Below are positions 9,628-49,747 of a stretch of 51,890 bases of DNA, piece after piece. The notes below the pieces were generated by a model. It was not told the origin of the DNA. It saw only the letters and a program-made list of their open reading frames with translations, and made no database searches. The DNA is from a bacterium (GTDB lineage Bacteria > SAR324 > JACQKK01): contig JBGOTW010000002.1 of the NCBI GenBank assembly GCA_041476685.1, positions 1 through 51,890 of the forward strand, written 5' to 3'. Within the stretch, counting starts at the first letter, position 1. Each line of letters begins with the position of its first letter. Both the position numbers and the translations under genes were made by a program.

Positions 9628-10443
9628 ATGAAAGTGATCCCGATCCCGTGCCTGAAGGACAACTACGCCTACCTCCTCGTTGACGATCAGACCGGCGAGG
9701 CGGGCGTGGTGGATCCGTCGGAAGCGCCGCCGGTAGAGGCTGCGCTCAAGCTGGCGGGCGTGCGCCTGAGTGCGATCCTCAATACGCACCATCACTGGGA
9801 CCACACCGGGGGGAACAAGCCCCTGCTGGGCGCGCATCCGAAGCTCAAGGTGTATGGACACGCCTCGGACCGGGGCCGCATCGATGGCCAGACCGATGCC
9901 CTGCAGCACGGCCAGGAATTCGCGCTGGGCACGCTGCGCCTGCGCGCCCTGCACAATCCCGGACACACGACCGGCGCCGTCAGCTACGCGGTCGGAGACG
10001 CCGTATTCACGGGCGACACGATGTTCGCCGCCGGCTGCGGGCGGCTGTTCGAGGGCACACCGGAAATGATGCACGCCTCGCTGTGCAAGGTGATCGGGAG
10101 CCTGCCCCGCCCCACGCGCATCTTCTTCGGGCACGAGTACACCGAGAACAACCTGCGCTTCGCTGCGGCGGTCGAGCCGGACAACGCGGCCGTGCTCGCA
10201 AAGCTGGCGCGGGTGCGCACGTTGCGCACCTCGGGCGGGATCACCACCCCTTCCACGCTGGAGGAGGAATGGGCGACTAACCCGTTCATGCGCTTCGATA
10301 GCCCGACCCTGCGCAAGCACGTACAGGCTGCGGACCCAGGCAACGACCTGAGCCCGGTCTCCGTGCTGGGAGCGGTGCGCAGGATGAAGGACAACTTCGG
10401 AGTCGGAAGCGGGCCGCACTCCTCCGCCTCGCTGCGAGTGTGA
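9628..10443 (+). CDS. gloB: Hydroxyacylglutathione hydrolase (glyoxalase II), MBL fold
   Basis: 271 aa. It reads MKVIPIPCLKDNYAYLL...NTHHHWDHTGGN...HNPGHTTGAVSY...FTGDTMFAAGCGRLFEG...GHEYTENNLRFA...TTPSTLEEEWATNPFMR, which is the canonical GloB motif order. Confidence 0.9.
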   Translation: MKVIPIPCLKDNYAYLLVDDQTGEAGVVDPSEAPPVEAALKLAGVRLSAILNTHHHWDHTGGNKPLLGAHPKLKVYGHASDRGRIDGQTDALQHGQEFALGTLRLRALHNPGHTTGAVSYAVGDAVFTGDTMFAAGCGRLFEGTPEMMHASLCKVIGSLPRPTRIFFGHEYTENNLRFAAAVEPDNAAVLAKLARVRTLRTSGGITTPSTLEEEWATNPFMRFDSPTLRKHVQAADPGNDLSPVSVLGAVRRMKDNFGVGSGPHSSASLRV

Positions 10444-10780
10444 GCGCAGGCCCGCGTTCGGACCCGTGCGGATCGGCCGGCGCACCGCAACAGGCAGACG
10501 GATTCCCCCCGCACCGGAATCGGACCGCGCAGCTCCCGCCCGCCCCGGCCCCGGAGGGCGGGCCGTATGGCGCAAGTCACTTGACGCGGGTCAATCCCAC
10601 GCGGATTCGGCGCACCGGCGGGTTTGACTTCGGCTAGAATTGACCGTAGCAAAGGACGGCGAATTTCCCGGCGCGCCCGCGGCAACCCGTCCCGCAAAGG
10701 TTGGGACGCGAGCGGCCGTGCGGACGGATCCCCGGCGCACACCACCAATCCCCTTTTTTTCGCAACGAGGAGAACGCAGC

Positions 10781-12120: not shown

Positions 12121-12879
12121 CTAAGCTCCTTCCTCGAGGAACTGCTCCAGGCGGCGATTGACCTGCGCGTACTGGGTGACGAAGGGCACGTGCCCGGCGC
12201 CCCGGCACAGGAAGAACGCCGAATGACGCAGCAGCTTGCGCAGCAGCTCCCCCTGCCATACCGGGCAGAGGCGATCTTCCTCCCCCTGCACGACCAGCAC
12301 GCGGCAGTCCAGGTGCGGAAGCACCTCAAGGTAGTCGTGACTGGCCAGGGTGTCGAAGGCCAGCTTAAGGAAGTCGCTCGCCTCGAACGGAGTCGGCTGC
12401 TTCGCCTCGGGTAGAGCCTCCTCGGCGGCACTGAAGGCCAGCTGGTGGTAGTGGCGCAGCATCTGGCGCGGATCGTCGTGCAGCTCCTTGCGCATCTCCG
12501 CCACGCGCTCCGGTGCCTGCCCGGACAGGTAGTTTCCGCCATTGGTGAAGCGAGCAAATCCGCCCAGCAGCACCAGCGCGCCGGGTTGCAGGCCGCGCTG
12601 AATCAGCTCGTAGGCGATGTAGGCGCCCAGCCCGTGCGCAAGGATCGCCTTGGGTTTTCGGTCCGCCGAATCAAGCTGCTGCTCGATGCCCAGGCTGACG
12701 TGCTCGAGCAGGTTTTCGTGGGTCGCCTCGGCGGGGCAGGGGTCGAGATTATAGTCCACCACCAGATTGCGGTACCGCCCGCGGAAGAATTCGACCTGTC
12801 GGTTCCACACTTGGGACTGGAAACCCCAGTCGTGCAGGTAGAGCAGGGCCGGTCCTTGGCCCACCACTTCCAGCCTCAT
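12121..12879 (-). CDS. Alpha/beta-hydrolase fold protein (BioH-like size), nucleophile elbow apparently AHGLG instead of GxSxG
   Basis: 252 aa. It has LLYLHDWGFQSQVW (HG-type oxyanion region), AILAHGLGAYIAYEL at the elbow position, VVQGEEDRLCP and GAGHVPFV (acid and His positions). It starts 21 nt downstream of lpxB on the same strand. Confidence 0.75.
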   Translation of the reverse strand: MRLEVVGQGPALLYLHDWGFQSQVWNRQVEFFRGRYRNLVVDYNLDPCPAEATHENLLEHVSLGIEQQLDSADRKPKAILAHGLGAYIAYELIQRGLQPGALVLLGGFARFTNGGNYLSGQAPERVAEMRKELHDDPRQMLRHYHQLAFSAAEEALPEAKQPTPFEASDFLKLAFDTLASHDYLEVLPHLDCRVLVVQGEEDRLCPVWQGELLRKLLRHSAFFLCRGAGHVPFVTQYAQVNRRLEQFLEEGA

Positions 12880-12900
12880 GGCATCCTCCTTTGTCTCGGC

Positions 12901-14067
12901 TCAATGGGCGCCAGGCCCAGCGGGCGGCACGCCGCGCCCGGCCTGCAGGGTCTCGGCAATTCGCGCGGCGGCCCGCTCGTAGGCCCCCGGGCTACCCAAC
13001 GCGTTCGTCGCCTCCAGCAAGCCACGCCGCATCTCCGCCTGCCGCTCCGGCTGGCGCGCCAGAGCCAGCAGCGCATCCCGCACGCGTTGCGGCGTCAGCG
13101 CGTCCTGCAGCAGCTCCGGCACGACTTCCCGCCCCGCCAGGATGTTCACGATCGCGAAGTGCCGCACGTAGGCGAAGCGCCGCGCGATCCAATAGCTCAA
13201 CGGCGCCACCCGGTACACCACCACGAACGGGATCCCCGCCAGCGCCACCTGCAACGTCGCCGTGCCGGAGGCGACCAGGCCGAGCCGGGCGAGCCTGAGC
13301 AGCGGCAGGAATGCCCGCTCCTCCACCCGCACTGGCACGCCCACCTCGGCCACCACCCGCCGCACTTCGGCCGCATCGAGGTTCGGCGCCACGGGCAGCA
13401 CCCAGCGTCCCTGCCAGCCCGACTGCTCGATCAGGCGGACGCCCGCCAGCAGGAGGGGCAGGATGCGCTTGAGCTCGCTGGGCCGGCTGCCCGGCATAAC
13501 CGCGACGATGGGCGCGCCCTCCGCACCCCCCAGCCGCGCCTGGAGCGCAGCAACCTCCTCGGACGACGCTCGCTCTCCCACCAGCGGATGGCCGAGGAAT
13601 TCCACGTTCACGCCGGCCTGCTCGTAGAGGTCCCGCTCGAAAGGGAAGAGCACGATCATCTTGTCCACGACGCGGGCGATGGTCTTCAACCGACCGCCTC
13701 GCCACGCCCAGATCTGCGGGCTCGAATAGTACACGACCCGGATGCCCCGCGCCTTCGCCGCCGTCGCCAGCTTGAGGTTGAAGCCCGGATAATCGATCAG
13801 CAGCACCGCGTCGGGCCGCTCGCTGTCGAGCGCGGATTCCAGCCGCCACAGGATGCGGTAGAGCCGGGGCAGGTGGGCCAGCACTTCCAACAGCCCGTGT
13901 ACCTGCAACTCGGCTAGATCGTACAGGGCGCGCAGGCCCGCCGCCCGCATGCGCGGGCCGCCGATCCCGAACGCATCGAGCTCCGGCAAGCGCGCCTTCA
14001 GGCCGGCCAGCAGGGCTCCGCCGTGGGTGTCGCCGGACAGCTCGCCGGCCACAATCATCAATTTCAT
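12901..14067 (-). CDS. lpxB: Lipid-A-disaccharide synthase
   Basis: Trimmed to the ATG at 14067. The product begins MKLMIVAGELSGDTHGGALLAGLKARLPELDAFGIGGPRM...LIDYPGFNLKLA...VYYSSPQIWAWR...LPGSRPSE...ASGTATLQVALAGIPFVVVYRV (388 aa), a typical LpxB. Confidence 0.9.
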   Translation of the reverse strand: MKLMIVAGELSGDTHGGALLAGLKARLPELDAFGIGGPRMRAAGLRALYDLAELQVHGLLEVLAHLPRLYRILWRLESALDSERPDAVLLIDYPGFNLKLATAAKARGIRVVYYSSPQIWAWRGGRLKTIARVVDKMIVLFPFERDLYEQAGVNVEFLGHPLVGERASSEEVAALQARLGGAEGAPIVAVMPGSRPSELKRILPLLLAGVRLIEQSGWQGRWVLPVAPNLDAAEVRRVVAEVGVPVRVEERAFLPLLRLARLGLVASGTATLQVALAGIPFVVVYRVAPLSYWIARRFAYVRHFAIVNILAGREVVPELLQDALTPQRVRDALLALARQPERQAEMRRGLLEATNALGSPGAYERAAARIAETLQAGRGVPPAGPGAH

Positions 14068-14394
14068 GCCGTTCCAGAGCTTGAAGGTGCATACCACGGC
14101 GCTTCCGTCACCATATCGGGTGGCGACGCGGCAATGCAATGAGCGGCCAAGGCATGCGGGCAAACGCGAGAGCGACGCCGAGCGATAGCGTCCCAGGCTG
14201 CGGTACTGGGGGCTATTACAACTGTGGCTGTTACACCTGAGGCGGCGGTACTTGGGGCGACGGTAGCCGGGGCGTGGCGCACCCGGTTACCGCCCAGCTG
14301 CGTGCGGGGAAGCGGCGTGCGGCGATGGAGCGTCGCCACGCAAGACCGCGAGGCGCGGAAGGTTTGCCGACCCGCCCAGCAAGGTGCTCACCGG

Positions 14395-15096
14395 CTAGGA
14401 GTCGGCGTGCGGTTTGCGCAGAGCCTCCATCCGCTTGCGCTGATCGAGGATCCAAGCACTGAGGGTCGCCTGATCGTGCACCGGCAGGTCGTAGCGACGC
14501 TCGACGATGACGTGCTCGAGTTCCGGAACGAGGTAAGTGTAGAAGTGATTGCGCCAGTCCGGCATGCGCGGCAGATAAGGCCGATAGACGATTTGGCCAA
14601 TCCCGACCTGCTTGTGAAAGCGGAACTCGTCGGTGAGATGATTGGGCGCGATGAAGAAGGCCTCGACCTCGACCACGTCGGTGGGGATGGAGATGCTGAA
14701 CGTGCCGTCGGGCCTGATAGCGGCCAGGTGCGCGGTCGGATGCGTGAGAATCACGCCCGGCTCGACCTCCGCGAACAGATAATGCTGCTTGTAGACCAGG
14801 ATCAGGGGCGGGCCGCTGGACTCCGATTCGCTCATGTCGAGCACGCCGACGATCTCGGAAGTGCTCATGCCGATGCGGAAGCTTGCCCGGTCGGGCAGAC
14901 AGCCGGATAGCGCGGGCAGCAGCAGTATCCAGGCGAATCCGCTCCATTTTTGGAGCGCCGTGCGTGCCAGACGGGGAAGTCTCGTGCGGAGTCGGGCGTG
15001 CGAATGGAAAGCGCGCACCGGGCACCCGCCCAGTGCGAGTCGCCGCCAATTCGTCAGGATTGCGGCGTCACGACCGACTGTCAGGCGGTCAGGCAA
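14395..15096 (-). CDS. Hypothetical lipoprotein (start uncertain)
   Basis: It carries a lipobox, WILLLPALSGC, after a positively charged stretch. I recognise no family. The real start is probably internal to the tracked 233-aa ORF. It lies directly downstream of rpoZ. Confidence 0.55.
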   Translation of the reverse strand: MPDRLTVGRDAAILTNWRRLALGGCPVRAFHSHARLRTRLPRLARTALQKWSGFAWILLLPALSGCLPDRASFRIGMSTSEIVGVLDMSESESSGPPLILVYKQHYLFAEVEPGVILTHPTAHLAAIRPDGTFSISIPTDVVEVEAFFIAPNHLTDEFRFHKQVGIGQIVYRPYLPRMPDWRNHFYTYLVPELEHVIVERRYDLPVHDQATLSAWILDQRKRMEALRKPHADS

Positions 15097-15099
15097 GCC

Positions 15100-15351
15100 C
15101 TATTCCTCCTCCTCTTCCTCAGCCGCCGGAGCAGGCAGCTCGGTCGGCTCTTCTTCCCGATAGCTCGAATAGATCTTCTTCGCCCGGATTTCCTCGAGCG
15201 CGATGTAGGTGTCCTTGTGCTCCGTTTCGAGCAGCGGCACCTTTGTGCCCCGATGCAAATCCTTGGCGCGTCTTGCGGCGACCAGCACCTTCTCGAACTG
15301 GGTGACTTCTGCGTCCTTTGGGTACTCTTCGATCAGGCTAAGATAGGTCAT
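15100..15351 (-). CDS. rpoZ: DNA-directed RNA polymerase omega subunit
   Basis: Trimmed to the internal ATG at 15351 (83 aa). The segment TQFEKVLVAARRAKDLHRGTKVPLLETEHKDTYIALEEIRAKKI matches the omega core pattern NRF.LV.LA.KRA.QL..G.......K....AL.EI..GKI. It has an acidic C-terminal tail. Confidence 0.7.
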   Translation of the reverse strand: MTYLSLIEEYPKDAEVTQFEKVLVAARRAKDLHRGTKVPLLETEHKDTYIALEEIRAKKIYSSYREEEPTELPAPAAEEEEEE

Positions 15352-15748
15352 GACCCTCCTGGACCTTTCGGGAATCCCCCGGGCGGGCGCCCGGGATCGC
15401 AACTTGCAAAGCTGTAGTTTGGCAGATCGCCCCAGCCACCACAAGGGCTCGCGCTTGTACGCATGCCCTCCCGCACGATGGCACGTCCCCCCTGAGCGCA
15501 TTCCACGCTGGAATCGGCCTGCCGCTTATTTGGACACCAGCGAACTTTGATGCCACCCGCGTAACCACTCGCCCATAGCAGACGATAACCCGCTAGTCGG
15601 ACCGCCCACTGGATGCCAGCTCCCGTGAAAGCCGGAGTAGGCGCGGGCGGTGCCACGGGCGAGTGTGAAGTCCTGGAACCCCCACCGGGACCAGAGGGGA
15701 AATTGGGGCAAGAAGCTCGCCAATCAGGTACCCAAGCGGAGATGTGCC

Positions 15749-15901
15749 ATGTCCCGACAGATGCGATACGTGTTGGTTGCGATCATGCTCAGCATCACGA
15801 CGATGTCGTTCATGTCCACGGCTTTGGCCCCGATCGTCCATGCGGCTGATGTGGATTGCGCCCAGGATGAGAACAAGGACAAGGACGAGTGCAAGAAGTA
15901 A
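15749..15901 (+). CDS. Small secreted peptide precursor (50 aa; predicted 18-aa mature peptide with two Cys)
   Basis: The ATG at 15749 has GGAG about 9 nt upstream. The product is MSRQMRYVLVAIMLSITTMSFMSTALAPIVHA|ADVDCAQDENKDKDECKK, with an n-region, a hydrophobic core and a VHA-A signal-peptidase-type site. Codon third positions are mostly G/C, as in neighbouring genes. Confidence 0.5.
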   Translation: MSRQMRYVLVAIMLSITTMSFMSTALAPIVHAADVDCAQDENKDKDECKK

Positions 15902-15991
15902 TTCGTCCACCAGCGGCCATTGCCGGGGGCGTGTAGCACCCCCTGGCAATGGCACGTGAATGGAGTTGTAGGGCCAGACGTCCGATCAAAA

Positions 15992-16029
15992 GTGCGCAGG
16001 TTCATCTCCGCGGCGCGCTTTCTTTTTTT
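15992..16029 (+). terminator. Possible intrinsic terminator after the small peptide gene
   Basis: A weak stem, GUGCGC...GCGCGC (with one G-U pair and a 15-nt loop), is followed by TTTCTTTTTTT. That T-tract is a very unusual run in this GC-rich window. Confidence 0.4.
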
Positions 16030-16044
16030 CCGGCTGCCCCTCCT

Positions 16045-16683
16045 TCACGGCTTCGCGTCGGCTCCAGGCGCCTTACCTGCCAGCACATGCTGCACCAACT
16101 GCTCCAACACATCGTAGGGCTGGGCTCCGACGACACCATAGCCTCCTGCCACGAAGGTCGGGACGCCCGTCACTCCCGCTTGCGCCGAGCGGCGCCAATC
16201 CTCGTCCACCGCATCGGAAAACGCCCGCGAATCCAGCACGCGCGCGGCCTCCGTGCCGGAAAGCCCGGCTGCATTCGCGATCGCGACCAATGCCTGGGGC
16301 AGGCCGATATTCCGCCCATCCACGAAGTAGGCGCGAAACAATGCGTCGTGAATCTTCTCGCCTCCGGGCTGCGTATCCGCCCACTTGGCCATCTCCTGGG
16401 CCAGGCGTGAATTGTAGGTGTGCGTGCGCTTCGAATATACCAGGCCTTCCTGGGCCATCAATCCCGCCATGCGCTCGTGGGCCTGCGCCGGGTCAATCCC
16501 CCGGCTCTTGTAGAAATCCGCCAGCAGCGAGCCTTCCTGGGGCGTCTCCGGATGCAGGGGGAACTGCACGTAGCGCACCTGGACAGGGAATTCACGTTTA
16601 AGCTTTTCAACACGCCCGGTGCTGAGATAGCACCAGGGTCAGACATAGTCGGAGAACACCTCCACGAGCAGGGGCTCGGACAT
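16045..16683 (-). CDS. DsbA/FrnE-like thiol-disulfide oxidoreductase with in-frame TGA at the first redox Cys (candidate selenoprotein, UPWC motif; alternatively a nonsense pseudogene)
   Basis: The tracked ORF 16045..16578 lacks the redox motif. Reading the same frame upstream gives ATG(16683) SEPLLVEVFSDYV-TGA-PWCYLSTGRVEKLKREFPVQVRYVQFPLHPETP..., which is the canonical F.D..CPWCY start of this family with TGA (16639-16641) in place of the first Cys. The C-terminus GVTGVPTFV is typical of the DsbA fold. Confidence 0.65.
16615..16638 (-). promoter_or_regulatory. Hairpin immediately 3' of the in-frame UGA (candidate bacterial SECIS element)
   Basis: The mRNA reads CCC-U-GGUGCU AUCUC AGCACC GGG, giving 9 bp with one bulged U and a 5-nt loop, starting at the first nucleotide after UGA. 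The loop lacks the G usually seen in SelB-binding loops, so support is partial. Confidence 0.4.
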
Positions 16684-16878
16684 GACAGGCCTCGCGGCAA
16701 TCGGATGTAGGCACTGGGGCTCCGGAGCGACGCGGCACTCGGGGCGCCACAAGGGCGGCCGCCGCGACTTCCGCCGCGTCGCATCGTCCTCAGGGCCAGA
16801 CTACAGGCGGCGCCCGCAGGGAGCAAATCGTCCGGCTCGTCCCGATTCTGACGCGAAGAATTCCTCTCCATCGGCGCC

Positions 16879-17761
16879 ATGCCGCACATGAGTGAACTGC
16901 GCCCTCTCGTCGCCGCGGCTCTACTGGCTCTGTTCGTGACCGGGTGCGCCGGCACGCCGCAGGAAATGCCTGGTCCTACGAACGTCCAGGTCCGCGGCAC
17001 GACCGACTGCGGTCCGATCGAGTACGTGGAAATTTCGCAGCGCGCTGGCGTGACACAAAGATTCCTAGTGCTTCACGCAAGGCAGCCCGTCGGCAGCGTG
17101 ATCCTGTTCACCGACAGCGATGGCCGGCTGCGCCTGCGACGGGCCGGGACGCTCGAGCGGGGCGCCAACTTTCACGTCCGCGTGCGCAAGGTATTCGCCG
17201 CTGCGGGGTTCAACGTCCCGCTGGTGGACATGCCTTCCGATCAATTCTCGCTGCGCGCATTTCCGCACCTGGGCCGCCCATGTGCTTGACGTCAAGGGCG
17301 TAATCGCCTACATGCGCGGGCAGCAGGAGGGTCCGGTCTGGCGGATCGGGACGAGCAACGGCACGATATCGCTGGCCAACGCCGCGGCGCGCCTCACCCG
17401 AGGCGGACCGGACGGCATCGTGCTGACCTCCACCGTCTCCCTGTCAGGCACCTCCGTGCACAATACCGGCCTGGGCGCGATCCGCATGCCGGTGCTGATC
17501 GTCCACCACGAGCCGGATCTGTGCGCTGCATCTCCAGTCTCGGCGGCCCGCATCCTGGTTGGCAAGCTGAAGGCGGCCAGTCTCTTGGCATTGCTGACGT
17601 TATCGGGCGGATCGCCGCCAGAGACTGGGCCGTGCGAGCCGTTCAGCCCGCACGGCTACTTCGGCATCGGGCAGAAGGTGGTGGACGCGATCGCGCAATG
17701 GCTGATAAGCGACGCGCCGCCTCGGGCGCTGCCGCCTGCCACCCCGACGCCTCGCCCTTAG
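16879..17761 (+). pseudogene. Alpha/beta-hydrolase lipoprotein disrupted by a +1 frame change near 17263 (pseudogene or sequencing error)
   Basis: ORF 16879..17289 (lipobox LFVTGC; ...VPLVDMPSDQFSLRAF) continues sensibly only in ORF 17120..17761 from ...FRTWAAHVLDVKGVIAYMRGQQEGPVWRIGTSNGTISLANAA (nucleophile elbow GTSNG). Removing one C from TTTCCGC at 17260-17266 would fuse them. Confidence 0.55.
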
Positions 17762-17880
17762 GGCGCGGCATGCCGGTCCGCCCCTCACCCACCCGTAAAG
17801 AAGAACCCTTCGCTTTCTCCAGCGAACGGCGTATTTACGGCATTGGAAGGGGGCGGATCGCGCCCTGCAGGAGAAACGAA

Positions 17881-18765
17881 ATGTCGACTTTGGGGTTCAT
17901 CGGGCTGGGCATCATGGGCAATCCCATGTGCCGCAACTTGATGAAGGCCGGTCACCGCCTCTACGTTTTCGACGTACTGCCACAAGCCGTGCAGCCGCTG
18001 CTGGGTCAGGGTGCGGTAGCCTGCGCCAGCTGCCGCGAGGTAGTCGAGCGGACCGAAGTCATCTTCATTATCGTTCCCGACACTGCGGACGTGGAACGGG
18101 TACTGTTCGGACCCGGCGGCGCGGCGCAACGGCCGGCGCCCGGGAAGATCATTGTCGACATGAGCTCCATCTCCCCGGTGGAGACCAAGGAATTCGCCCA
18201 GCGCCTCGCGGCAAACGGCATCGAAATGCTCGACGCGCCCGTATCCGGCGGCGAAGTCGGGGCGGAGTCGGGTACCCTGTCCATCATGGTGGGCGGCAAA
18301 GAAGCCGTTCTGGCAAAAGTCAGGCCCTACCTGGACGTGATGGGCAAGACCATCACGCACATCGGCGACCACGGTGCGGGACAAACGGCGAAGGTTGCCA
18401 ATCAGATCATCGTGGCGCTCAACCTGGAGGCGATCTGCGAGGCGCTGCTGTTTGCCTCGAAGGCCGGGGCCGACCCTGTCAAGGTGCGCCTAGCGCTCAT
18501 GGGGGGGGCGGCCAACAGCCGGATGCTTGAAATCAAAGGCGAGTGGATTCTTGCCCACCGCTTCCAGCCGGGGTTCCGCGTCAAGCACCAGCAAAAGGAT
18601 CTCAACAACGCCCTGAACGCCGCGCGCAAGCTTGGCCTGACTCTGCCAAACACCGCGGCCACGCAGGAACTCTATAACGCCTTGCTCAGCGACGGCGGGG
18701 CGGACCTCGATCACTGCGCCCTGCTTACCGCGCTGGAGCGGCTTGCCAATTACAGGCTCGCCTAG
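17881..18765 (+). CDS. NAD(P)-dependent 2-hydroxy-3-oxopropionate (tartronate semialdehyde) reductase / 3-hydroxyisobutyrate dehydrogenase family
   Basis: Trimmed to the ATG at 17881, with AGGAG upstream. The product reads MSTLGFIGLGIMGNPMCRNLMKAGH...VDMSSISP...LDAPVSGGEVGAESGTLSIMVGG...GAGQTAKVANQ...KDLNNAL (294 aa). Confidence 0.9.
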   Translation: MSTLGFIGLGIMGNPMCRNLMKAGHRLYVFDVLPQAVQPLLGQGAVACASCREVVERTEVIFIIVPDTADVERVLFGPGGAAQRPAPGKIIVDMSSISPVETKEFAQRLAANGIEMLDAPVSGGEVGAESGTLSIMVGGKEAVLAKVRPYLDVMGKTITHIGDHGAGQTAKVANQIIVALNLEAICEALLFASKAGADPVKVRLALMGGAANSRMLEIKGEWILAHRFQPGFRVKHQQKDLNNALNAARKLGLTLPNTAATQELYNALLSDGGADLDHCALLTALERLANYRLA

Positions 18766-18777
18766 CCCGACTCCGAA

Positions 18778-18794
18778 CCCCGAGGGACTCGGGG
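18778..18794 (+). terminator. Short hairpin 13 nt after the reductase stop
   Basis: CCCCGAG-GGA-CTCGGGG (7-bp stem, 3-nt loop) with no U-tract. It lies in a convergent gap with the porin gene. Confidence 0.35.
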
Positions 18795-22315: not shown

Positions 22316-22717
22316 CCGGGAGTGCTTGCAAGCCACTGGGCACCGGGGTGCTGGTGAATGCCCTCCAGGGCAGCGAATCAGCGCGACAGGAATTACCGCC
22401 CCAATCCAAGGGCTGCGGGTCCGAAGGAACCCAAGGAAGCCGTGGATATCGGGTCCCTGGCGCATGGGTCGCAGAGCCTTCTGCGAGCTATGCAGATAGT
22501 GTGACACAGGCGGGGGGGAGCGGGAAATGACCTGTGGTACAGTTCCGGCACAACTGCGGTTTTGGCCGGGACACGAACCACGCAAGCTCGGGTCGGCGCT
22601 GCCTGCCGCACACGCCGCAAGTGGCCCGGTCCGATTTCGGCTTTGTCAAATCGTTGCTTGCACAGAGCGGATTGGCGTCGTGACTCAGCCTGCGTCCACT
22701 CCTGCTGGATAATCGCA

Positions 22718-25579
22718 ATGCCCGAGCTGTTGAAGCTTCCCGCCGCGTGCTGGTTGGCCGAGGCCGAGGCCGGGGCATTGCTGCTTACGGCGACTGGCCA
22801 CTTGCAGCGTCACCTGCACGAGACCTACGCCCGGCACCGGGCAGAGCAGGGCCTGGTGGCGTGGGACACGCCCGCGATCCTGACCTGGCACGCCTGGCTG
22901 GAGCGGATGTGGCAGGAGCGCCTGTTGGCGGGAGCAGACGGTGCAGAACCCACCGTGCTCCTGCACGCGGCACAGAGCACCACCCTGTGGCAGCAGGTGC
23001 TCACGGCCGACGTGCGCACGCGCGACCTGCTGCACTTGGGGGGCCTAGCGCGACAGGCGGAAGCGGCGTGGACGCTGCTGCACGCGTGGGACCTCGGCGC
23101 GGCGGTGGCGGGGGCGCGGGGCGGCCGCCCGGAGGAGACGCATTTTGCCGCATGGGCGCGCAGCTATGGAGAGCAGACGGAGCGGCGCGGCTGGTGCGAC
23201 GGGGCGCGCTTGCCCGGGCATGTGGCCCGCTGGATCGCGGGAGGCGCGCTGCCCGTGCCGGGGCGCATCCTGCTCGCTGGCTTCGACGCATTCGACCCGG
23301 CCCAGGGTCGCGTGCTGGAGGCGCTCGCCCTGCGGGGAAGCGTGTGCGTGGAGTTGGAACCGCCCGCCTGCGGAGCCAGTGGAACGGACGGCACCCTGCA
23401 GCGCGTGGCTTGCGTGGATGCGGAGGCGGAGGTCGAGGCGGCGGCCCGCTGGGCGCGGGCGCAACTCGATGCCGGAGCTACGACGGTGGGAATCGTGGTG
23501 CAAGGGCTGGAGGGGCGAGCCGGCCAGGTTGAGCGCGTCTTCCGCGATCTGTTGGCGCCCGATGCCGCCCTGCCGGGCGCGGACGAGCGGTCGCTGCCCT
23601 ACCATCTCTCCCTCGGCCCGGCCCTGGCCGATGTGCCCCTGGTGCGTGGGGCGCTCCGGCTGCTGCGGCTTGTCGGTCCGGCAATGGCACTCGAACCGCT
23701 GGAGGCTGCGCTGCTAGTGCCCTACCTGGGCGGCGCCGCGGCGGAGCGGGAGCGGCGCGGGCTGCTGGTGACACGACTGCGGAAGCTGGGCGATCCTGCG
23801 GTCACGCTGGACACGGTGACTCGCCAAGCGGCGCAGAGCTGCCCGGAACTGGCGCGGCACCTGGGCGCGGCCATGCAACTGCTGGCGCGGTTGCCGGCCC
23901 GGCAGTCCTATGCTGCCTGGGCCCAGGCCTGCACTGACCTGCTGCGTGCGCTGGGCTGGCCGGGCCACGGCGAGGGCGGGCGCACACTGTCGTCGGTGGA
24001 ATTCCTAGCCTACGAGCGCTGGCGGGACTTGCTGGACGAATTGTGCGGACTGGACCTGGTGTTGCCTCCTACCGAGCGCGGGGAGGCGCTGACGCGCTTG
24101 CACGAATTGGCGACCGGCACGCCCTTTCTGCCGCCCTCCGATCCGGCGCCCGTGCAGATCTTGGGGCATTTGGAGGCGGCGGGCCTGGCCTTCGATCGGT
24201 TGTGGGTGCTGGGCATGGATGACGCAGATTGGCCGCGTCCGCCTCAGCCCAATCCCCTGCTGCCCCTGGCGGTGCAGCGCGCCCGCGGCCTGCCCCGCGC
24301 TTCCGCCGAACGGGAGCTGCGCTTTGCCGAGCGGGTGACGGCGCGCCTGCAGGGTGCCGCCCCGCGCGTCGTGATGTCACACGCGGAGCAGCAAGGCGCG
24401 GCTCGGCTTGGCCCCAGCCCGCTCATCGCCGCGCTGCCCCTCGTATCGCTGGAGTCGCCAGGCATGCCCACGCAGCAGCGCCTGGCCGACCAATTGCGGC
24501 AGCACCTGCTGGCGAACCGCTGCAGCGAGCCGCGAGGGAACGAACCGCTGCGCGCCCTGCCCTCGGGCACGGCCCAGCATTCGGGCACAAGCATCTTCTC
24601 CGACATGGCGGCCTGTCCATTCAGGGCCCAGGCGCGCCACCGCCTCGGCGCGGAAGACGCCCCCCTGCCCGAGCCGGGCCTGAGTCCCGCCGATCACGGC
24701 AGCCTGCTGCACGCTGTGCTGCAGCGGGTCTGGAGGTCCCTCGGCAACCAGGCTGCCCTGCAAGCGCAATCCGAGTCCGCTCTCACCGCTCAGCTCAAGG
24801 AGGCGATAAAGTCTGCGCTCAACGAGTTCCGCAGCGGCCACGGACGCGTCACGCCGGCCCTGGCGCAATTGGAGTCGGAGCGCCTGGAGCGCTTGGCGCG
24901 CGCGCTGCTGGAACTGGAACGCACGCAGCGCTCCCCATTCGCGGTGACGGCGTCCGAGCAGGCCGTGGAGACGACGGTGGGCGGATTGCAGGTGCGGCTG
25001 CGCATGGACCGGGTGGACACCCTCGCCGGTGGCGGCCGCGTGCTGCTCGATTACAAGAGCGGCCAAGCCTATCCCAAGCAATGGCTAGGCGAACGGCCTG
25101 AGGCGCCCCAGCTTCCCCTGTACGCCATCGCCCATCCCGCTCCGCCCGTGGCCCTCGCATTCGTGCGCGTGCACAGCGACGAGGTGGGTTTTGCAGGCGT
25201 GGCCGCCCGGGACGTGGGCATTCCCGGCGTGCTGGCCTGCCAAGACTGGAAAGCGGGGCAGAAGGCACTTGCGGAGCCGGGTACTGCGGGCTCCCGGCAA
25301 CTGGATAATAGGCCGACGAAGGCCCAGTGCACCGGTACCGGCGCGAGCGGCGCAACGATAACATGGGACGACTTGCTTGCCCGCTGGCGGCAGGTATTGG
25401 GGTCATTGGGCGAGCGCTTCCGCGCGGGTCAGGCGGCGGTGGACCCGCAGAAATCAGCCTGCGAGTATTGCCCGCTGCCGGCCCTCTGCCGCATTGACGA
25501 GCAGGGCTCCCTTGCGCGTGCGGACGAGGGCGCGGCTGACGGCGACATCCCGGAGCAGGAGGGCGGCGATGACGCTTGA
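22718..25579 (+). CDS. AddB-like PD-(D/E)XK nuclease subunit of a two-component helicase-nuclease (DSB repair)
   Basis: Trimmed to the ATG at 22718 (953 aa). There is no Walker A. The C-terminal nuclease block reads GRVLLDYKSGQ, with a C-x2-C-x5-C (CEYCPLPALC) iron-staple-type cysteine pattern and an upstream Cys (MAACPFRAQ). Confidence 0.75.
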   Translation: MPELLKLPAACWLAEAEAGALLLTATGHLQRHLHETYARHRAEQGLVAWDTPAILTWHAWLERMWQERLLAGADGAEPTVLLHAAQSTTLWQQVLTADVRTRDLLHLGGLARQAEAAWTLLHAWDLGAAVAGARGGRPEETHFAAWARSYGEQTERRGWCDGARLPGHVARWIAGGALPVPGRILLAGFDAFDPAQGRVLEALALRGSVCVELEPPACGASGTDGTLQRVACVDAEAEVEAAARWARAQLDAGATTVGIVVQGLEGRAGQVERVFRDLLAPDAALPGADERSLPYHLSLGPALADVPLVRGALRLLRLVGPAMALEPLEAALLVPYLGGAAAERERRGLLVTRLRKLGDPAVTLDTVTRQAAQSCPELARHLGAAMQLLARLPARQSYAAWAQACTDLLRALGWPGHGEGGRTLSSVEFLAYERWRDLLDELCGLDLVLPPTERGEALTRLHELATGTPFLPPSDPAPVQILGHLEAAGLAFDRLWVLGMDDADWPRPPQPNPLLPLAVQRARGLPRASAERELRFAERVTARLQGAAPRVVMSHAEQQGAARLGPSPLIAALPLVSLESPGMPTQQRLADQLRQHLLANRCSEPRGNEPLRALPSGTAQHSGTSIFSDMAACPFRAQARHRLGAEDAPLPEPGLSPADHGSLLHAVLQRVWRSLGNQAALQAQSESALTAQLKEAIKSALNEFRSGHGRVTPALAQLESERLERLARALLELERTQRSPFAVTASEQAVETTVGGLQVRLRMDRVDTLAGGGRVLLDYKSGQAYPKQWLGERPEAPQLPLYAIAHPAPPVALAFVRVHSDEVGFAGVAARDVGIPGVLACQDWKAGQKALAEPGTAGSRQLDNRPTKAQCTGTGASGATITWDDLLARWRQVLGSLGERFRAGQAAVDPQKSACEYCPLPALCRIDEQGSLARADEGAADGDIPEQEGGDDA

Positions 25580-28500
25580 CGGCAACCCTTTCTTGGCAAC
25601 GCAAGCCGGAGACGACGCGCCGATTCGCGCCGCGGCGCTCGATCCCCGCGGAAGCTTCATCGTGCGGGCGCCCGCCGGATCGGGCAAGACCGCGCTGCTC
25701 ATCCAGCGTCTGCTGCGCCTGCTGGCCGAAGTGGATGCGCCGGAGGAAATCGTCGCTATCACTTTCACCCGCAAGGCGGCAGCCGAGATGCGGGAACGGC
25801 TGTTGGGGGCGCTGCGGCTGGGTACGGAGGAAGCTACACCGGACAAGCCTTTGGAGCGGGAACTGTGGACGCTAGCGCGTGCGGCGCTCGCCCATGCAGC
25901 GCAGCGCGGCTGGTCAGTGTTGCGCCATCCCAACCGGCTCCGCATCCAGACCTTCGACGCCTTCTGCCACGCCCTGGCACGCCAACATCCGTGGCGCTCG
26001 GGCCTGGGCGGCCCGCTGCAGCTGACCGAGGACCCGGAACCGCTGTACCGCAACGCGGCGCGCGCCACACTGGCCCTGCTGGACTCGCGCGAACCGGAAG
26101 CGGCCGCGGCGGCGCATCTGCTGCGGCTCCGGGACGTGCGCGTGGAGCAGGTGGAGGACTTGCTTGTGCAGATGCTGGCCCGGCGCGATCAGTGGCTGCG
26201 GCACTTGCCTCCGCAGGAGCGGGGCGCGGCGGCGCATGGATGGGCGCCAGGCAGCGCAGAGGCAGCGGGCTTACGGGCCGCACTCGAAGCGGCGCTGGCG
26301 CGGATTGTCACGGAGGCCCTGACGGATCTGCGCGCGGAAGCCGAGGCCGTGGCGCGGGTTCTCTCTGCCGGCGACACCGGAGGCGCGGGGATGCTGGCCA
26401 GGCACTGCGCGCGGTTGGCCCGCCACGCTGTGGCCAGGACGGAATCCGGCCTCGCCCTGGCCCTCGCACCGGCTGCGAATCTGACGGATCTGCCGGGTAG
26501 CGCCCCCGGAGACGCACTCGCTTGGCGGGCACTGGCGACACTCCTGCTGACCCAGCAGGGAACCTGGCGCAAGCCGCGCGGGATCAACGCGCGCCTGGGC
26601 TTCCCGACGGGCATGGTGGGCACGCCGGAGGGGGACTTGAAGGCGGATATGCAGGAACTGCTCGTGGCCCTTGAGGGGCACGAGCGGCTGCGCGGGTGTC
26701 TGGCCGGGTTGGAGCACCTGCCCAGCCCCGCCTACACGGACGCCCAATGGGAAACGCTGGGGGCGTTGGCGGCGCTGTTGCGGCGGGCGGCGGCACTCCT
26801 GCGCCAAAGCTTCAGCGCGGCGGGCGTGGTGGACTTCGTCGAGATGGCGCGGGCGGCCGAGCATGTGGCGGCGGCATGGAATGTGCCGCCTGCCGGAGCG
26901 AGGGAGAACAGGGGAACGGATGAGGACGGGCCCGAAGGGCCGGGAATCCGGCACCTTCTCGTTGACGAATTCCAGGATTCCTCCCACGCTCAGTTCCGCC
27001 TGCTGATGCTGCTCACCCGGCGCTGGCAGGCCGGGGACGGGCGCTCGCTATTCCTCGTCGGCGATCCGATGCAGTCCATCTACCGCTTCCGTGAAGCGGA
27101 CGTGGGCCTGTTCCTGCAGGCGGAGCTGCGCGGCATCGGCGGCGTCCACCTAGAGCCGTTGCGGCTAGAGCGCAATTTCCGGGCGCGGCCGGGTATCGTT
27201 GCCCAAACCAACCGCACGTTCGCCGCCGTTTTTCCCGTTGAGGCGGACGCTCTGCGCGGCGCCGTGACGTACGCGCCCTCCCGCGCCGCACTTACCGAGC
27301 CGCGGGCAGGGGAAGGCCCCTCCGCCGCGGCGGTTCAACTGCATCCGGTCATCGTGGCGGCGAACGCCGGCGGCCGCGAAGGCGAGGAGCGGGAAGCGGC
27401 GCTGGTCGCCGATCTGGCGCGTGCGGCGCTGGCCGAACAGATGTCCGCGCGAGGTTCGGTCGCGATCCTGGTGCAGGCACGTACGCACCTGCAAGCGATC
27501 TTGCCTGCGCTCGCGAGGGCCGGCGTGCCGCTGCAAGCGGTAGCGCTCGATCCCCTGGACCGCCGCCCGGCGGTGCTCGATCTGCTGTCCCTCACGCGGG
27601 CGCTGCTCTATCCGGGAGACCGCATCGCCTGGCTGGCAGTGCTGCACGCGCCCTGGTGCGGACTTGGGCTGGCCGACCTGGAAGCCCTTACGCTCGCGAC
27701 GGCGGAGCGCACCCTGTGGGAGGCGCTGGACTCGACAGAGGCCGATCGGGCCGGAGCGACCGCCCCGGCGGAACGTCTCGCGTCCGGCGCGGCAGTGCCA
27801 GGTCCCGATTCCATCAGCGCTGCAGGACGCCGACGGATCGTTCGGCTGCGCACGGCGTTGGCACCTGCAGTGGCGGAATTGGGACGCGTGCCCCTGCGTC
27901 GCACGGTGGAGGGGGCATGGCTGGCGCTGGGTGGGCCGGCATGCATGGCTGCGGCGGACAAGGCCGACGTGCGCGCCTTCTTCGACGTGCTGGACGGACT
28001 GGAGGCAGAGGGCGCAGTGCCGAGCCCGGAGGAGCTAGGGCGGCGGTTGGCGCGGCTGCGCTCTGTGCCCGCGCCGGCGGCGGGACCGCTGGTGCAGGTA
28101 ATGACCATTCACGAAGCGAAGGGGCTCGAGTTCGACACGGTAATCCTGCCCGGCCTGCACCGGGCGACGGGGCGGGATACGCGTCCGCTGCTGCGCTGGC
28201 TGGAGCGTCCCACCGCACAGGGAAGCGACCTGGTGTTGGCTCCGATTCCCTCTCTGTGGACGCCTCCAGGGGCTCCCTCGTCTCAGGCAGGAGCGCATGA
28301 AGACCCGATCCAGCGCTACCTGGACAACGTGGAGCAGTCGCGCGCCGAGCATGAGCGGCGGCGGCTCCTGTACGTCGCGTACACGCGGGCCAAGGAGCGG
28401 CTGCACCTGCTGGGCGTTGCCTATTACGATGGCGGGAGGGTAAAGGCGCCGCGCGCGGGGACATTGCTCGCGGCGCTGTGGCCTGCCGTGGAGGCGGAAT

Positions 28501-29288
28501 TTGCCGTGGCTCCCCGCTCGGCACCTGAAGCTCAGCGCCGCACCGCTGCTGCGGCGGCGCCCCTTGCGCAGGCCGCTCGCATGGGCAGCGACGCTCCTCA
28601 GGGGGAGAGTGGTTCCCTGGCGGGGAGGCGGCTCACGGCAGACTGGCGCCTGCCCGAACTGGCACTTCGCGCAGCCTCTCAGGGGCCGCAGCCTGGGGAA
28701 GCACCCGCCGCCGAACCGGTGGTGTTTGACTGGGCCGGACCGCAGGCGCGGCTGGTGGGCACCGTGGTGCATGCGTTCTTGCAGCGCATCGCCCAAGAGA
28801 CCCTCGAGGCCTGGGACGGCGCGGCCTTACAGGGCCGGCGGGAGACGGTGCGGCGGCTATTGATCCGGGCGGGTCTGGTCGGGCCGGAGCTGGGAGCGGC
28901 GACAGAGCGGGTACTGCAGGCGTTGAGCCAGGCGCTTGCGGACCCGCGCGGACGTTGGGTGCTGGGTCCGCAAGGCGAGGCACGCGCCGAGTGGGAATTG
29001 ACGGTCCGGGTGGACGGACGCACGCGTCGCATCGCGCCGGACCGCACATTCGTAGCCGCGGACGGCGCGCATTGGATCGTAGACTACAAGACCGGCTCCC
29101 ACGCGGGCGGCAACCTCGAAGAATTCCTGGACAGGGAGCGCGAGCGTTATCGGCCACAGCTCGAGCGCTACGCGCGCGCCCTGCGCGCCCTTGACGCGCG
29201 CAGAGCCATTCGCTGCGGGCTGTATTTTCCGCTTGCCTGCGCCGCGGACGGCACGGGGGGATGGCGGGAATGGGAGTTTCGCCCCTGA
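25569..29288 (+). CDS. AddA-like UvrD/Rep-family helicase with C-terminal PD-(D/E)XK nuclease domain
   Basis: Trimmed to the ATG at 25569, overlapping the upstream gene by 11 nt. It carries APAGSGKTALLIQR (Walker A), LLVDEFQDSS, GDPMQSIYRFREA, NFRARP, TIHEAKGLEFD, YVAYTRAKERL and, near the C-terminus, HWIVDYKTG. Confidence 0.85.
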   Translation: MTLDGNPFLATQAGDDAPIRAAALDPRGSFIVRAPAGSGKTALLIQRLLRLLAEVDAPEEIVAITFTRKAAAEMRERLLGALRLGTEEATPDKPLERELWTLARAALAHAAQRGWSVLRHPNRLRIQTFDAFCHALARQHPWRSGLGGPLQLTEDPEPLYRNAARATLALLDSREPEAAAAAHLLRLRDVRVEQVEDLLVQMLARRDQWLRHLPPQERGAAAHGWAPGSAEAAGLRAALEAALARIVTEALTDLRAEAEAVARVLSAGDTGGAGMLARHCARLARHAVARTESGLALALAPAANLTDLPGSAPGDALAWRALATLLLTQQGTWRKPRGINARLGFPTGMVGTPEGDLKADMQELLVALEGHERLRGCLAGLEHLPSPAYTDAQWETLGALAALLRRAAALLRQSFSAAGVVDFVEMARAAEHVAAAWNVPPAGARENRGTDEDGPEGPGIRHLLVDEFQDSSHAQFRLLMLLTRRWQAGDGRSLFLVGDPMQSIYRFREADVGLFLQAELRGIGGVHLEPLRLERNFRARPGIVAQTNRTFAAVFPVEADALRGAVTYAPSRAALTEPRAGEGPSAAAVQLHPVIVAANAGGREGEEREAALVADLARAALAEQMSARGSVAILVQARTHLQAILPALARAGVPLQAVALDPLDRRPAVLDLLSLTRALLYPGDRIAWLAVLHAPWCGLGLADLEALTLATAERTLWEALDSTEADRAGATAPAERLASGAAVPGPDSISAAGRRRIVRLRTALAPAVAELGRVPLRRTVEGAWLALGGPACMAAADKADVRAFFDVLDGLEAEGAVPSPEELGRRLARLRSVPAPAAGPLVQVMTIHEAKGLEFDTVILPGLHRATGRDTRPLLRWLERPTAQGSDLVLAPIPSLWTPPGAPSSQAGAHEDPIQRYLDNVEQSRAEHERRRLLYVAYTRAKERLHLLGVAYYDGGRVKAPRAGTLLAALWPAVEAEFAVAPRSAPEAQRRTAAAAAPLAQAARMGSDAPQGESGSLAGRRLTADWRLPELALRAASQGPQPGEAPAAEPVVFDWAGPQARLVGTVVHAFLQRIAQETLEAWDGAALQGRRETVRRLLIRAGLVGPELGAATERVLQALSQALADPRGRWVLGPQGEARAEWELTVRVDGRTRRIAPDRTFVAADGAHWIVDYKTGSHAGGNLEEFLDRERERYRPQLERYARALRALDARRAIRCGLYFPLACAADGTGGWREWEFRP

Positions 29289-36577: not shown

Positions 36578-36954
36578 CAAGCTGAATTCCTCCGCGGGCA
36601 ATTGCGGCAGGTGCGGCCGGGCAGCGGATAACCGGCCCGTCCTCATGCTGCATGGGTTTAGCACCGGCTCGCGCCGGACGATGTCCTCCCCAAAATTTCT
36701 GCCGGGCAGCCAGCCGTTGTACCATGGTTGGCCCGGGCATATGCATCCGATTATCCCTCCGACTCTTTCTGCCATGCCGGGGGCCTGGACTCGGCTTCCC
36801 CCCTCGCCGGGAAGGGAGGCCAATGGTAGCCTTCCCCACGCCTTGGGCGGCAAGCTATTCGATCTTCGCGAAGGGGCACTCCCTGCATCCTGTCGCGTCG
36901 CCACGCCGGATGCGCCCACGGCCGACCGCTTCCTCTTCCGCTCCCCGGGTGCCT

Positions 36955-37926
36955 ATGCCTGAAATGCCGCGTGCAGCGCCGCCCCAAGCCCCGCTTCGCT
37001 CGCCGTCCGATCTGCCACCCACAACTGCTGCACGGCCTGACCGGAACTACGGCCCGAGTCCCAAGCCGGGCGCCACGCGCGAGCGTATCGACGTGCGTCG
37101 CATCGGCCTGCGCAGCCACTTCTGGGAGGACATGTACCACCTGATGTTGGTGACGGCGTGGTGGAAGATCCTGCTGCTGTTCCTTGCCGTGTTTGTGGGT
37201 CTGAACCTCGCCTTCGGCCTGGCCTTCGAGCTGACCGGGGGAGTGCAAGGCGCCACGAGTTTCTGGGAGTTGTTCTTCTTCAGCGTGCAGACCTTCTCGA
37301 CCATCGGCTACGGTTCGATGGCGCCGGTCAGCTTTGCGGCAGAGGCGGTGACCACCTTCGAGGCGTTCGTCGGCGTGCTGGTCAATGCCTTCGCCGCGGG
37401 CATCGTCGTGATCAAGTTCGCCCGGCCCACCGCTCGTGTCATGTTCTCCCGCGTGATGGTGCTGACCAGGTTCGACGGCGTGCCGACCCTGATGGTGCGG
37501 ATGGCCAACTCGCGGCAGAACCAGGTGTTCGACGCGCAGGTGGCGATGTTCCTGCTGCGGGACGTGCGGACAGCGGAGGGCTTCGCCTTGCGGCGGCTGT
37601 ACGACCTGCCGCTGGCGCGCCAGCAGACTCCGTTTTTCACTCTCACTCTGACCGCCATGCACCCCGTGGACGAGCGCAGCCCGCTCCACGGCCTGACGCG
37701 CGAGGAGCTCATAGCGATGCGCGCCCAGATCATCGTCACGATCCAGGGCGTGGACGAGTCGTTCATGACCCAGGTGCACGCACGGCGCTACTATCAGGTC
37801 GCCGACATCGTGTGGAATGCACACTTTGCCGACGTGTTGGGCATGGGGCAGGACGGGCGGGTGGTGGTGGACTATCGCCGCTTCCACGACGTGGTGCGTC
37901 CCGAAGATCCGGCGGCCCAGGGCTAG
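36955..37926 (+). CDS. Inward-rectifier-type potassium channel (KirBac family)
   Basis: Trimmed to the ATG at 36955 (323 aa). It has two TMs flanking a pore helix and the selectivity filter FFFSVQTFSTIGYGSM, followed by a beta-rich cytoplasmic domain (VMFSRVMVLTRFDGVPTLMVRMAN...), as in KirBac channels. Confidence 0.85.
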   Translation: MPEMPRAAPPQAPLRSPSDLPPTTAARPDRNYGPSPKPGATRERIDVRRIGLRSHFWEDMYHLMLVTAWWKILLLFLAVFVGLNLAFGLAFELTGGVQGATSFWELFFFSVQTFSTIGYGSMAPVSFAAEAVTTFEAFVGVLVNAFAAGIVVIKFARPTARVMFSRVMVLTRFDGVPTLMVRMANSRQNQVFDAQVAMFLLRDVRTAEGFALRRLYDLPLARQQTPFFTLTLTAMHPVDERSPLHGLTREELIAMRAQIIVTIQGVDESFMTQVHARRYYQVADIVWNAHFADVLGMGQDGRVVVDYRRFHDVVRPEDPAAQG

Positions 37927-48661: not shown

Positions 48662-48663
48662 GG

Positions 48664-49416: not shown

Positions 49417-49610
49417 GGGCGTGTCCAAGTCCCGGGCGTGCGACGGCGGACACAAGCGCTCCCGGCAAGGGCAATCTGCGGCCGCCGCAGGGCGGAACGG
49501 TTGGCCGGGTTACGCGGAACGTGCCACGCTTGTCTCGACAGCCTAACATGGCGCGCGCACCGTAGGCAGCCAGGACCGTGTGCAGCCTGCACGTTGGGCG
49601 GCCGGCTCCG

Positions 49611-49642: not shown

Positions 49643-49747
49643 TGGGCATTCAGCGCCGCAGCCAGCGCAGCCCGGGTCCCGGCTCGCGGCATGGCCGGTG
49701 CCCTTTGTGACGGTTCGTTCCGACCCCCAAGGAGTCCGAGGTTCGCC

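Follow-up and report, generated by a model that had tools for sequence, protein, structure and literature searches.

Can a stop codon in the active site of a bacterial oxidoreductase gene be a sense codon? The question is raised by contig JBGOTW010000002.1 of assembly GCA_041476685.1, a 51,890-nt stretch of DNA from the SAR324 lineage (hereafter the window, i.e., the whole stretch analysed), the minus strand of which carries a DsbA/FrnE-like gene with a TGA codon (16641-16639) at the place of an active-site cysteine. A sequence-only reading of this DNA had proposed that the TGA encodes selenocysteine (Sec) instead of the attacking Cys of a CxxC motif, had put forward a hairpin directly downstream (16638-16615) as the recoding element, and had named an orthologue alignment and an Rfam covariance search as checks and scattered stops in orthologues as a sign of decay. 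We conclude that this TGA is highly likely to be a genuine Sec codon, read via the SelB pathway with another hairpin, H2 (16625-16607), as the selenocysteine insertion sequence (SECIS). This conclusion is carried by the reading frame, by the pattern of Sec and Cys forms among orthologues, by a covarying hairpin specific to the TGA forms, by the fit of that hairpin to the bacterial SECIS (bSECIS) rules and by the sel genes that lie beside one orthologue.

The coding sequence extends from 16683 to 16045 on the minus strand and comprises 212 sense codons, with the Sec codon at position 15 and a terminal TGA at 16047-16045. Its translation reads MSEPLLVEVFSDYV-TGA(16641-16639)-PWCYLSTGRVEKLKREF..., the TGA being the sole internal stop, which confirms the earlier statement that the frame is open back to the ATG at 16683 apart from this one codon. 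A GAGG ribosome-binding site (16693-16690) is read 6 nt upstream of the ATG (16683-16681), which corresponds to a conserved Met. Once Cys was put in place of the stop, residues 7-197 matched positions 2-190 of the 191-position Pfam DSBA profile (PF01323; E 8e-34, 117.6 bits against a cutoff of 25.6), and because the match begins at profile position 2, the domain starts upstream of the TGA. The UGA, codon 15, lies in the context F-S-D-Y-V-U-P-W-C, where the predicted Sec takes the N-terminal, attacking-Cys position of the U-P-W-C motif; the resolving Cys, codon 18 (TGC, 16632-16630), is the only Cys of the protein. Residues 173-177 (16167-16153) form a conserved G-V-P-T-F loop that aligns with GVPFF of FrnE in the alignment with PDB structures, and which we take to supply the cis-proline opposite the active site, as in thioredoxin-fold/DsbA proteins. 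With the active site at residue 15, right after strand beta-1, no signal peptide is possible by position, and a cytoplasmic site of action is expected. The product is very probably a 212-residue cytoplasmic DsbA/FrnE-like thiol-disulfide oxidoreductase with the active site Sec15-Pro-Trp-Cys18. It does not belong to the NCBIfam 'Rcas_1661 family thioredoxin-like (seleno)lipoprotein', the match to which reached 36.5 bits where 190 are required.

Is the segment upstream of the TGA translated at all? The sequence-only reading had described an ORF that starts at GTG 16578 and lacks any redox motif; this ORF was found as described, its start being residue 36, and the public gene call (P0001) begins at GTG 16569 (residue 39) and yields 174 aa, again without the motif. 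Both the mechanical ORF list and the public call thus suit a short protein made from GTG 16578 or GTG 16569, with the upstream segment untranslated. Such a protein would be deprived of strand beta-1, of the active site and of the start of helix alpha-1, whereas Pfam and FrnE align from residue 2-7. The two GTGs lie within a conserved V-x-F-P-L-H-P block and have no Shine-Dalgarno sequence, in contrast to ATG 16683 with its GAGG 6 nt upstream. Protein-level conservation extends over the 35 upstream codons in all orthologues, nearly all of which have a conserved Met ~14 codons 5' of the TGA, and the ~200-aa Cys-form proteins begin at the position equivalent to ATG 16683. In addition, variation at the three codons preceding the TGA (GAY, TAY and GTN) is almost wholly synonymous among 110 distinct sequences, which indicates that the segment 5' of the stop is translated in frame. 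A short form is, on these grounds, scarcely credible.

The truncation of this gene recurs throughout the databases. Without exception, the most similar proteins in the databases (73-99% identity; ENA, JGI and Logan assemblies) lack their N-terminus, with lengths of 174-180 aa, and relatives at ~60-66% identity are full length (~200 aa). Truncated calls of 174-180 aa are what is expected where Sec genes go unrecognised, and they constitute a systematic mis-annotation of the Sec gene; with such truncated and motif-less entries, the catalogues conceal the redox function of these proteins and the dependence of their hosts on selenium. Entries P0001-P0009, P0012, P0013, P0017, P0019 and P0021 are stored in this form, without redox motif, and at two loci (L081 and L082) the N-terminal fragment is annotated as a separate 86-aa gene.

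Orthologue DNA was collected from 80 loci of GTDB species-representative genomes, from contigs of close homologues and from metagenome contigs, the latter scanned solely with the codons for D-Y-V-TGA-P-W-C, a pattern matched by at least 120 contigs. Among the genome loci, the equivalent of codon 15 is TGA in 18/80 and TGC or TGT in 61/80; the remaining locus, L077, a 5'-truncated match without codon 15, was left out of this count. The alignment thus displays a clean alternation of TGA with TGC/TGT at codon 15 in intact frames. The 18 TGA-form genomes are metagenome-assembled genomes (MAGs) of Alphaproteobacteria/Rhodospirillaceae, one SAR324 MAG, two Terriglobia MAGs and one Pirellulales MAG. 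Overall, TGA occupies exactly codon 15, with both flanks open, in more than 130 independent orthologues, the 18 genomes among them belonging to four phyla or lineages; such a placement is far beyond chance. At least 119 sequences, the window included, share a Met ~14 codons upstream, one TGA and ~186-200 open codons after it; ~18 additional TGA forms represent divergent Sec subfamilies, and three matches are chance or garbled. Codon 18 is TGC or TGT, hence Cys, in every one of the 110 aligned TGA forms, with variation confined to the third base. Soil and marine Alphaproteobacteria, SAR324, Terriglobia and Pirellulales commonly carry the Sec form.

These data bear on the possibility that the gene is a nonsense pseudogene, in which an active-site TGC or TGT mutated to TGA and the gene is decaying. 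A single base change would suffice, gene callers treat the gene as truncated, and the contig is devoid of Sec machinery. Against decay stand the recurrence of the same TGA in all these independent orthologues of several phyla, with intact flanks and synonymous variation just upstream, and the four close relatives of the window gene (L081-L084, 79-88% identity), which retain the TGA, the frame and the hairpin. Scattered stops are not seen: the orthologues keep intact frames around codon 15. In a neighbour-joining tree of 156 sequences, built without the SECIS-encoded peptide and from a sample biased towards relatives of the window gene, Sec and Cys forms are mostly separate, with ~5 inferred switches, and Sec is inherited within large clades, again contrary to decay. 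The TGA-form-specific hairpin, moreover, covaries (see below). We consider a pseudogene extremely improbable; neither an isolated nonsense mutation nor a sequencing error nor a short protein is compatible with the orthologue pattern, the frames, the synonymous variation and the tree taken together.

Premature stops were encountered in 3 or 4 TGA-form orthologues among the at least 119 close and ~18 divergent sequences: L164, L175 and L116, as well as L126 near a contig end, have an extra stop 110-179 codons past the Sec codon, for which gene decay or errors of assembly could account. The window and L081-L084 also have a gene order in common (OprB porin, 3-hydroxyisobutyrate-dehydrogenase-like gene, DsbA, rpoZ and lpxB). 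An exact look-up of the OprB of the window returned no record, and the DsbA-like protein itself occurs on this contig only. For LpxB of the contig, the best matches bear the names Candidatus Lambdaproteobacteria (66%), unclassified Deltaproteobacteria MAGs and SAR324 (48-59%), and the host is therefore probably an uncultured representative of this group.

We then considered how TGA is used elsewhere in the window. It ends 16 of the 28 well-supported genes, including the DsbA-like gene itself, and is the commonest ordinary stop. Genome-wide reassignment of TGA is excluded by this usage, and the recoding at codon 15 is therefore local. A scan of the window for in-frame TGA codons with coding-like flanks, by which further selenoprotein candidates might have appeared, returned only 16641-16639 and ordinary gene boundaries.

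Segments of 60 nt from 110 distinct TGA forms were aligned without gaps, with the U of UGA as column 10 (alignment A1; the window coordinate is 16651 minus the column number). The hairpin H2 pairs columns 26-32 with columns 38-44 around a loop at columns 33-37. In the window, its 5' arm UCAGCAC (16625-16619) and its 3' arm GUGUUGA (16613-16607) form a 7-bp stem closed by the 5-nt apical loop CGGGC (16618-16614); distances from the UGA are 13 nt to the start of the stem and 20 nt to that of the loop. H2 overlaps the hairpin of the sequence-only reading and lies 14 nt further downstream. In A1, 97% of the H2 cells are paired, against 25-46% for slid controls, and five of the seven pairs display compensatory (double-sided) changes, in 32 cells; none of 500 shuffles matched the observed values. 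H2 is also the consensus structure returned by RNAalifold. The covariation is most easily seen between columns 30 and 40, which are U-A in 93 sequences and C-G in 17, with no other combination among the 110. Changes at columns 27, 28 and 31 are likewise compensated at the H2 partners 43, 42 and 39 and not at the partners that the upstream hairpin would provide.

H2 is specific to the TGA forms: at least six of its seven pairs form in 110/110 TGA forms and in 0/58 Cys forms. This difference is written into both the peptide and the codons. The peptide that follows CPWCYL is S-T-G/V-R-I/V-E in the TGA forms and G-D-N-R-V-K in the Cys forms. The Arg codon is CGT in 21/21 TGA forms against 1/55 Cys forms, the Leu codon is CTC in 20/21 TGA forms against 19/57 Leu codons of the Cys forms, and the next-but-one codon is ACC for Thr in 20/21 TGA forms, whereas 42 Cys forms have GAY there and hence a different residue, Asp. 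Being part of the coding sequence, the putative SECIS dictates the choice of codons as well as the peptide L-S-T-G/V-R-I/V-E that follows the active site. The strongest test of the hairpin is provided by a divergent Sec subfamily that reads U-PWCYIDSVRVE: it builds a perfect H2, UCGACUC[GGUCC]GRGUCGA, from other codons, with pairs 28/42, 29/41 and 31/39 swapped relative to the main family. Another divergent subfamily of TGA forms (L087, L101 and L105, which read U-PWCYLVASSLEKLE... or U-PWCYMAESSLDSL...) forms 2-5 of the 7 H2 pairs and may have a different SECIS geometry.

According to the published rules, a bSECIS element has 3-9 nt in its apical loop and 4-16 bp in its upper stem, a minimum free energy (MFE) of -7.5 kcal/mol or lower, a G as the first or second loop base, in most cases with G or U after it, and a distance of 16-37 nt between UGA and loop (PMC13188914). 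With its 5-nt loop and 7-bp stem, H2 agrees with the rules on loop and stem; the second loop base is G, followed by G or U (C-G-G/U-G-C), and the UGA-to-loop spacing of 20 nt (columns 13-32) falls within the range. The loop is CGUGC or CGGGC in 90/110 sequences and GGUCC in the divergent subfamily. The energy of H2 in the window is -7.8 kcal/mol, or -10.0 kcal/mol with H2 enforced in a 51-nt context. Like the bSECIS consensus and the SECIS of E. coli fdhF, H2 is a stem-loop within the coding sequence, just 3' of the UGA; it differs from them in having no evident bulged U, a stem of 7 bp and marginal stability, and in overlapping a more stable alternative hairpin in the window.

That alternative hairpin, H1 (16639-16612, core 16638-16615), is the candidate of the sequence-only reading. 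The existence of H1 was upheld: it belongs to the MFE fold with an energy of -16.9 kcal/mol, is stable in the window and excludes H2. For the 81-nt region in its entirety, folding was not better than in shuffles (z = -1.0). Its proposed role as the SECIS was not. We examined H1 as columns 12-22 pairing with columns 28-39, in two registers. As the most stable local structure, paired at 86-90% across the main family in either register, it could serve as the SECIS by itself or be indispensable to a larger one with the UGA in its lower stem; in E. coli fdhF, too, a lower helix of the SECIS reaches the UGA. Several observations oppose such a role. Double-sided changes affect only the worst-paired pair, or none in the register of the sequence-only reading, and the covariation scores are equal to or below those of shuffles; changes at columns 28, 30 and 31 are compensated at the H2 partners 42, 40 and 39 and not at the H1 partners. 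H1 collapses in the divergent Sec subfamily in which H2 is perfect, pairs 17/33, 19/31 and 21/29 each being present in 4 of 18 divergent-subfamily sequences. The published rules are not obeyed either: the apical loop of H1, AUCUC, is devoid of G, and its distance of 10 nt from the UGA falls short of the 16-37 nt range. Finally, its 5' arm is constrained anyway by the P-W-C-Y codons. H1 is probably incidental, and its acting as the SECIS or as a part of it appears very unlikely.

We therefore return to H2 as the putative SECIS, and propose that UGA 16641-16639 would be decoded as Sec through the bacterial SelB pathway as follows. A ribosome with the UGA in its A site would cover the ~12 following nucleotides, that is, the whole 5' arm of H1, so that H1 would be melted at the moment of decoding. 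H2, 13 nt past the UGA, could then fold at the mRNA entrance; the minimal fdhF SECIS of E. coli has a spacing of 11 nt, close to these 13 nt. The G-G/U loop of H2 would be bound by SelB-GTP-Sec-tRNA(Sec), and Sec would be delivered to the UGA. The loop sequence and its position point to H2 as a putative SelB ligand, and a ribosome-driven switch from H1 to H2 would presumably accompany each decoding event.

Is the machinery for this pathway at hand? No SelA, SelB or SelD was found among the ~45 ORFs of the window by Pfam and NCBIfam scans, and the window contains no tRNA according to ARAGORN and no Rfam match. The lack of sel genes on a 52-kb contig says little. An AIRS-domain ORF (49691-50941, plus strand) was considered as SelD and rejected as PurM-like: it encodes an AIRS + AIRS_C protein of the PurM/ThiL/SelD superfamily that can be assigned neither to SelD nor to PurM proper (97.6 bits with TIGR00878, the cutoff of which is 236), flanked by two His_biosynth (hisA/hisF-type) genes (47891-49455) and a transglutaminase-like gene.

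A complete sel set was found beside the TGA-form orthologue of L011, an Alphaproteobacteria MAG. At 2-8 kb from this gene (10001-10591) are selA and selB (12637-16689; NCBIfam, 503 and 422 bits), a tRNA-Sec gene (17479-17570; Rfam RF01852, 73 bits) and selD (17578-18780; 364 bits). Searches with SelA, SelB and SelD of L011 against 204 loci and the window (tblastn) matched L011 alone, and sel linkage is therefore not general. The segment 10001-18780 of L011 has the appearance of a selenium island, comprising the DsbA-like gene, a second TGA gene, selA, selB, tRNA-Sec and selD. The second gene, on the minus strand at ~11.7-12.2 kb, has its in-frame TGA in the context GVGL-U-STC and gives a weak match to the NCBIfam UGSC family. 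In the same segment, 12637-16689 is one unbroken ORF of 1350 codons, with SelA at residues 244-595 and SelB at residues 709-1335, which could be a SelA-SelB fusion or a chance in-frame junction.

The UGA could also be read through as Cys or Trp by near-cognate or suppressor decoding, for instance where Sec synthesis had been lost or selenium is scarce. Such an explanation is accommodated by the facts that the genome of the window is known, with respect to Sec machinery, from this contig only, and that the identity of residue 15 (Sec, or Cys or Trp) is deduced from sequence. It leaves unaccounted for a downstream element that resembles a SelB-dependent SECIS (G-G/U loop, right spacing) and is confined to the TGA forms, as well as the whole selABCD set beside the gene of L011; general suppression is implausible given that TGA is the commonest ordinary stop in the window. 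Readthrough as Cys or Trp thus seems very unlikely, and the organism of the window would, by the same evidence, insert Sec at codon 15.

Several observations nevertheless weigh against Sec decoding with H2 as the SECIS. In the naked mRNA of the window, H1 is ~9 kcal/mol more stable than H2, and the two are mutually exclusive. H2 passes the -7.5 kcal/mol rule only marginally in the window; the bare 7-bp helix averages -5.7 kcal/mol, and 19 of the 110 family members reach -7.5 kcal/mol. The loop flanks C33 and C37 are unable to pair, unlike the commonest consensus pattern. H2 has no match in Rfam at the gathering threshold over the window, and the covariance search over 16540-16700, from which the sequence-only reading might have drawn support, returned nothing at E up to 10. 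Lastly, selA, selB, selC and selD are absent from the 52-kb contig, so that the Sec decoding capacity of the host is a matter of inference.

Selenoproteins of this type are not without precedent, as the sequence-only reading had stated with respect to bacterial and metagenomic surveys, and a UxxC family is indeed listed (PMC1088965, PMC13188914). The DsbA-like selenoprotein family originates from Zhang, Fomenko and Gladyshev (2005), who reported a DsbA-like protein (UxxC, COG2761) as a new family of the Sargasso Sea with nine sequences and a predicted SECIS (PMC1088965). In 2006 a DsbA-like selenoprotein was noted in Anaeromyxobacter, Desulfovibrio and Desulfotomaculum genomes (PMC1794560), a 2016 survey counted 45 DsbA-like selenoprotein genes in 41 organisms (PMC5029168), and a 2026 review lists 'DsbA-like protein form 1' with PF01323 and UxxC (PMC13188914). 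The window gene fits form 1 in its domain, in the UGA at the first UxxC position, in its Cys homologues and in the conservation of the UGA, and is very probably an unannotated new member of this known family. The two have PF01323, Sec at the first UxxC position and widespread Cys homologues in common, as well as a predicted bacterial SECIS shortly past the UGA, the small apical loop of which contains a G. Set beside the published description of the family, whose representatives are AACY01178397 and NIP15863.1, the window gene shows no essential difference; none of the fetched loci was an original Sargasso Sea AACY contig. A second form, DsbA-like form 2, shares PF01323 and a Sec codon with the window protein, the differences being that its Sec is found in DxxUP in a crotonase/enoyl-CoA hydratase context, whereas the window protein is a stand-alone DSBA protein with UxxC (PMC13188914).

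Biologically, the finding adds nothing new: reports of DsbA-like selenoproteins go back to 2005, and decoding follows the usual bacterial route. Its value lies in the correction of widespread truncated annotations and in a SECIS signature backed by covariation. The signature, UGA followed by 13 nt and a 7-bp stem with a C-G-K-G-C loop, is usable for the family and could serve the re-annotation of hundreds of metagenomic genes.

With respect to solved structures, the best relatives of the window protein are FrnE of Deinococcus radiodurans (5cnw and 5cp1) and SCO1869 (3gl5), with E 5e-26 and 6.5e-24; they are cytoplasmic oxidoreductases of the DsbA family (COG2761). The alignment with FrnE (5cnw) comprises residues 2-205 and covers the W/F-S-D-x-x-C-P-W-C-Y block and the GVP(T/F)F loop. 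All three proteins are without signal peptide. FrnE has Cys at the Sec position of the window protein and is longer (260 aa), with a C-terminal CxxxxC tail; such a tail is missing from the window protein, which has one Cys in all. Judging from FrnE, it would probably function in the cytoplasm, as a reductase or isomerase of disulfides during redox stress. Membership of the window protein in COG2761 is indirectly supported by FrnE being its best PDB relative and by the JGI name of homologues, 'predicted DsbA family dithiol-disulfide isomerase', presumably the name of COG2761. The periplasmic DsbA of E. coli shares the DSBA fold, a CxxC-type motif at the N-terminus of helix alpha-1 and the cis-Pro loop; its motif is CPHC and it is exported, whereas the window protein has UPWC and no signal peptide. 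PDB chains named just 'DsbA' match the window protein marginally (E 7e-4).

Two further ideas can be entertained jointly: that the H1/H2 pair is a switch actuated by the ribosome, and that the Sec gene is a self-contained module spread horizontally. A strong H1 in the free mRNA could hide the SelB-binding loop until the ribosome melts it, and Sec insertion would then be tuned against termination in the clade of the window. The presence of one SECIS design across at least four phyla, including many aerobic soil and ocean lineages, hints at horizontal spread of the module, sometimes together with sel genes as in L011. The joint reading is unlikely, if less so than the alternatives to Sec decoding considered above.

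Other features of the window were noted in passing. On the minus strand at ~15917-15952, ~95 nt past the DsbA stop, lies a long GC-rich inverted repeat (CCATTGCCAGGGGG...CCCCCGGCAATGG) without a T-run; a simple terminator scan downstream of the gene returned a weak site at 16012-15995 instead of this repeat. The minus-strand segment 20456-22585 contains a 709-codon ORF without Pfam match, rich in Ala, Pro, Ser and Gly and with ~8 repeats of the type ...NLGRVPxPGAPP...; the region is 72% GC and every frame is open on both strands. On the plus strand, 36652-37926 encodes a KirBac-type inward-rectifier potassium channel (Pfam IRK, Ion_trans_2 and IRK_C), and 22562-29288 encodes an AddB-like protein (PD-(D/E)XK nuclease, 1005 aa) followed by an AddA-like protein (UvrD helicase + nuclease, 1303 aa), the two ORFs overlapping by ~200 nt as listed.

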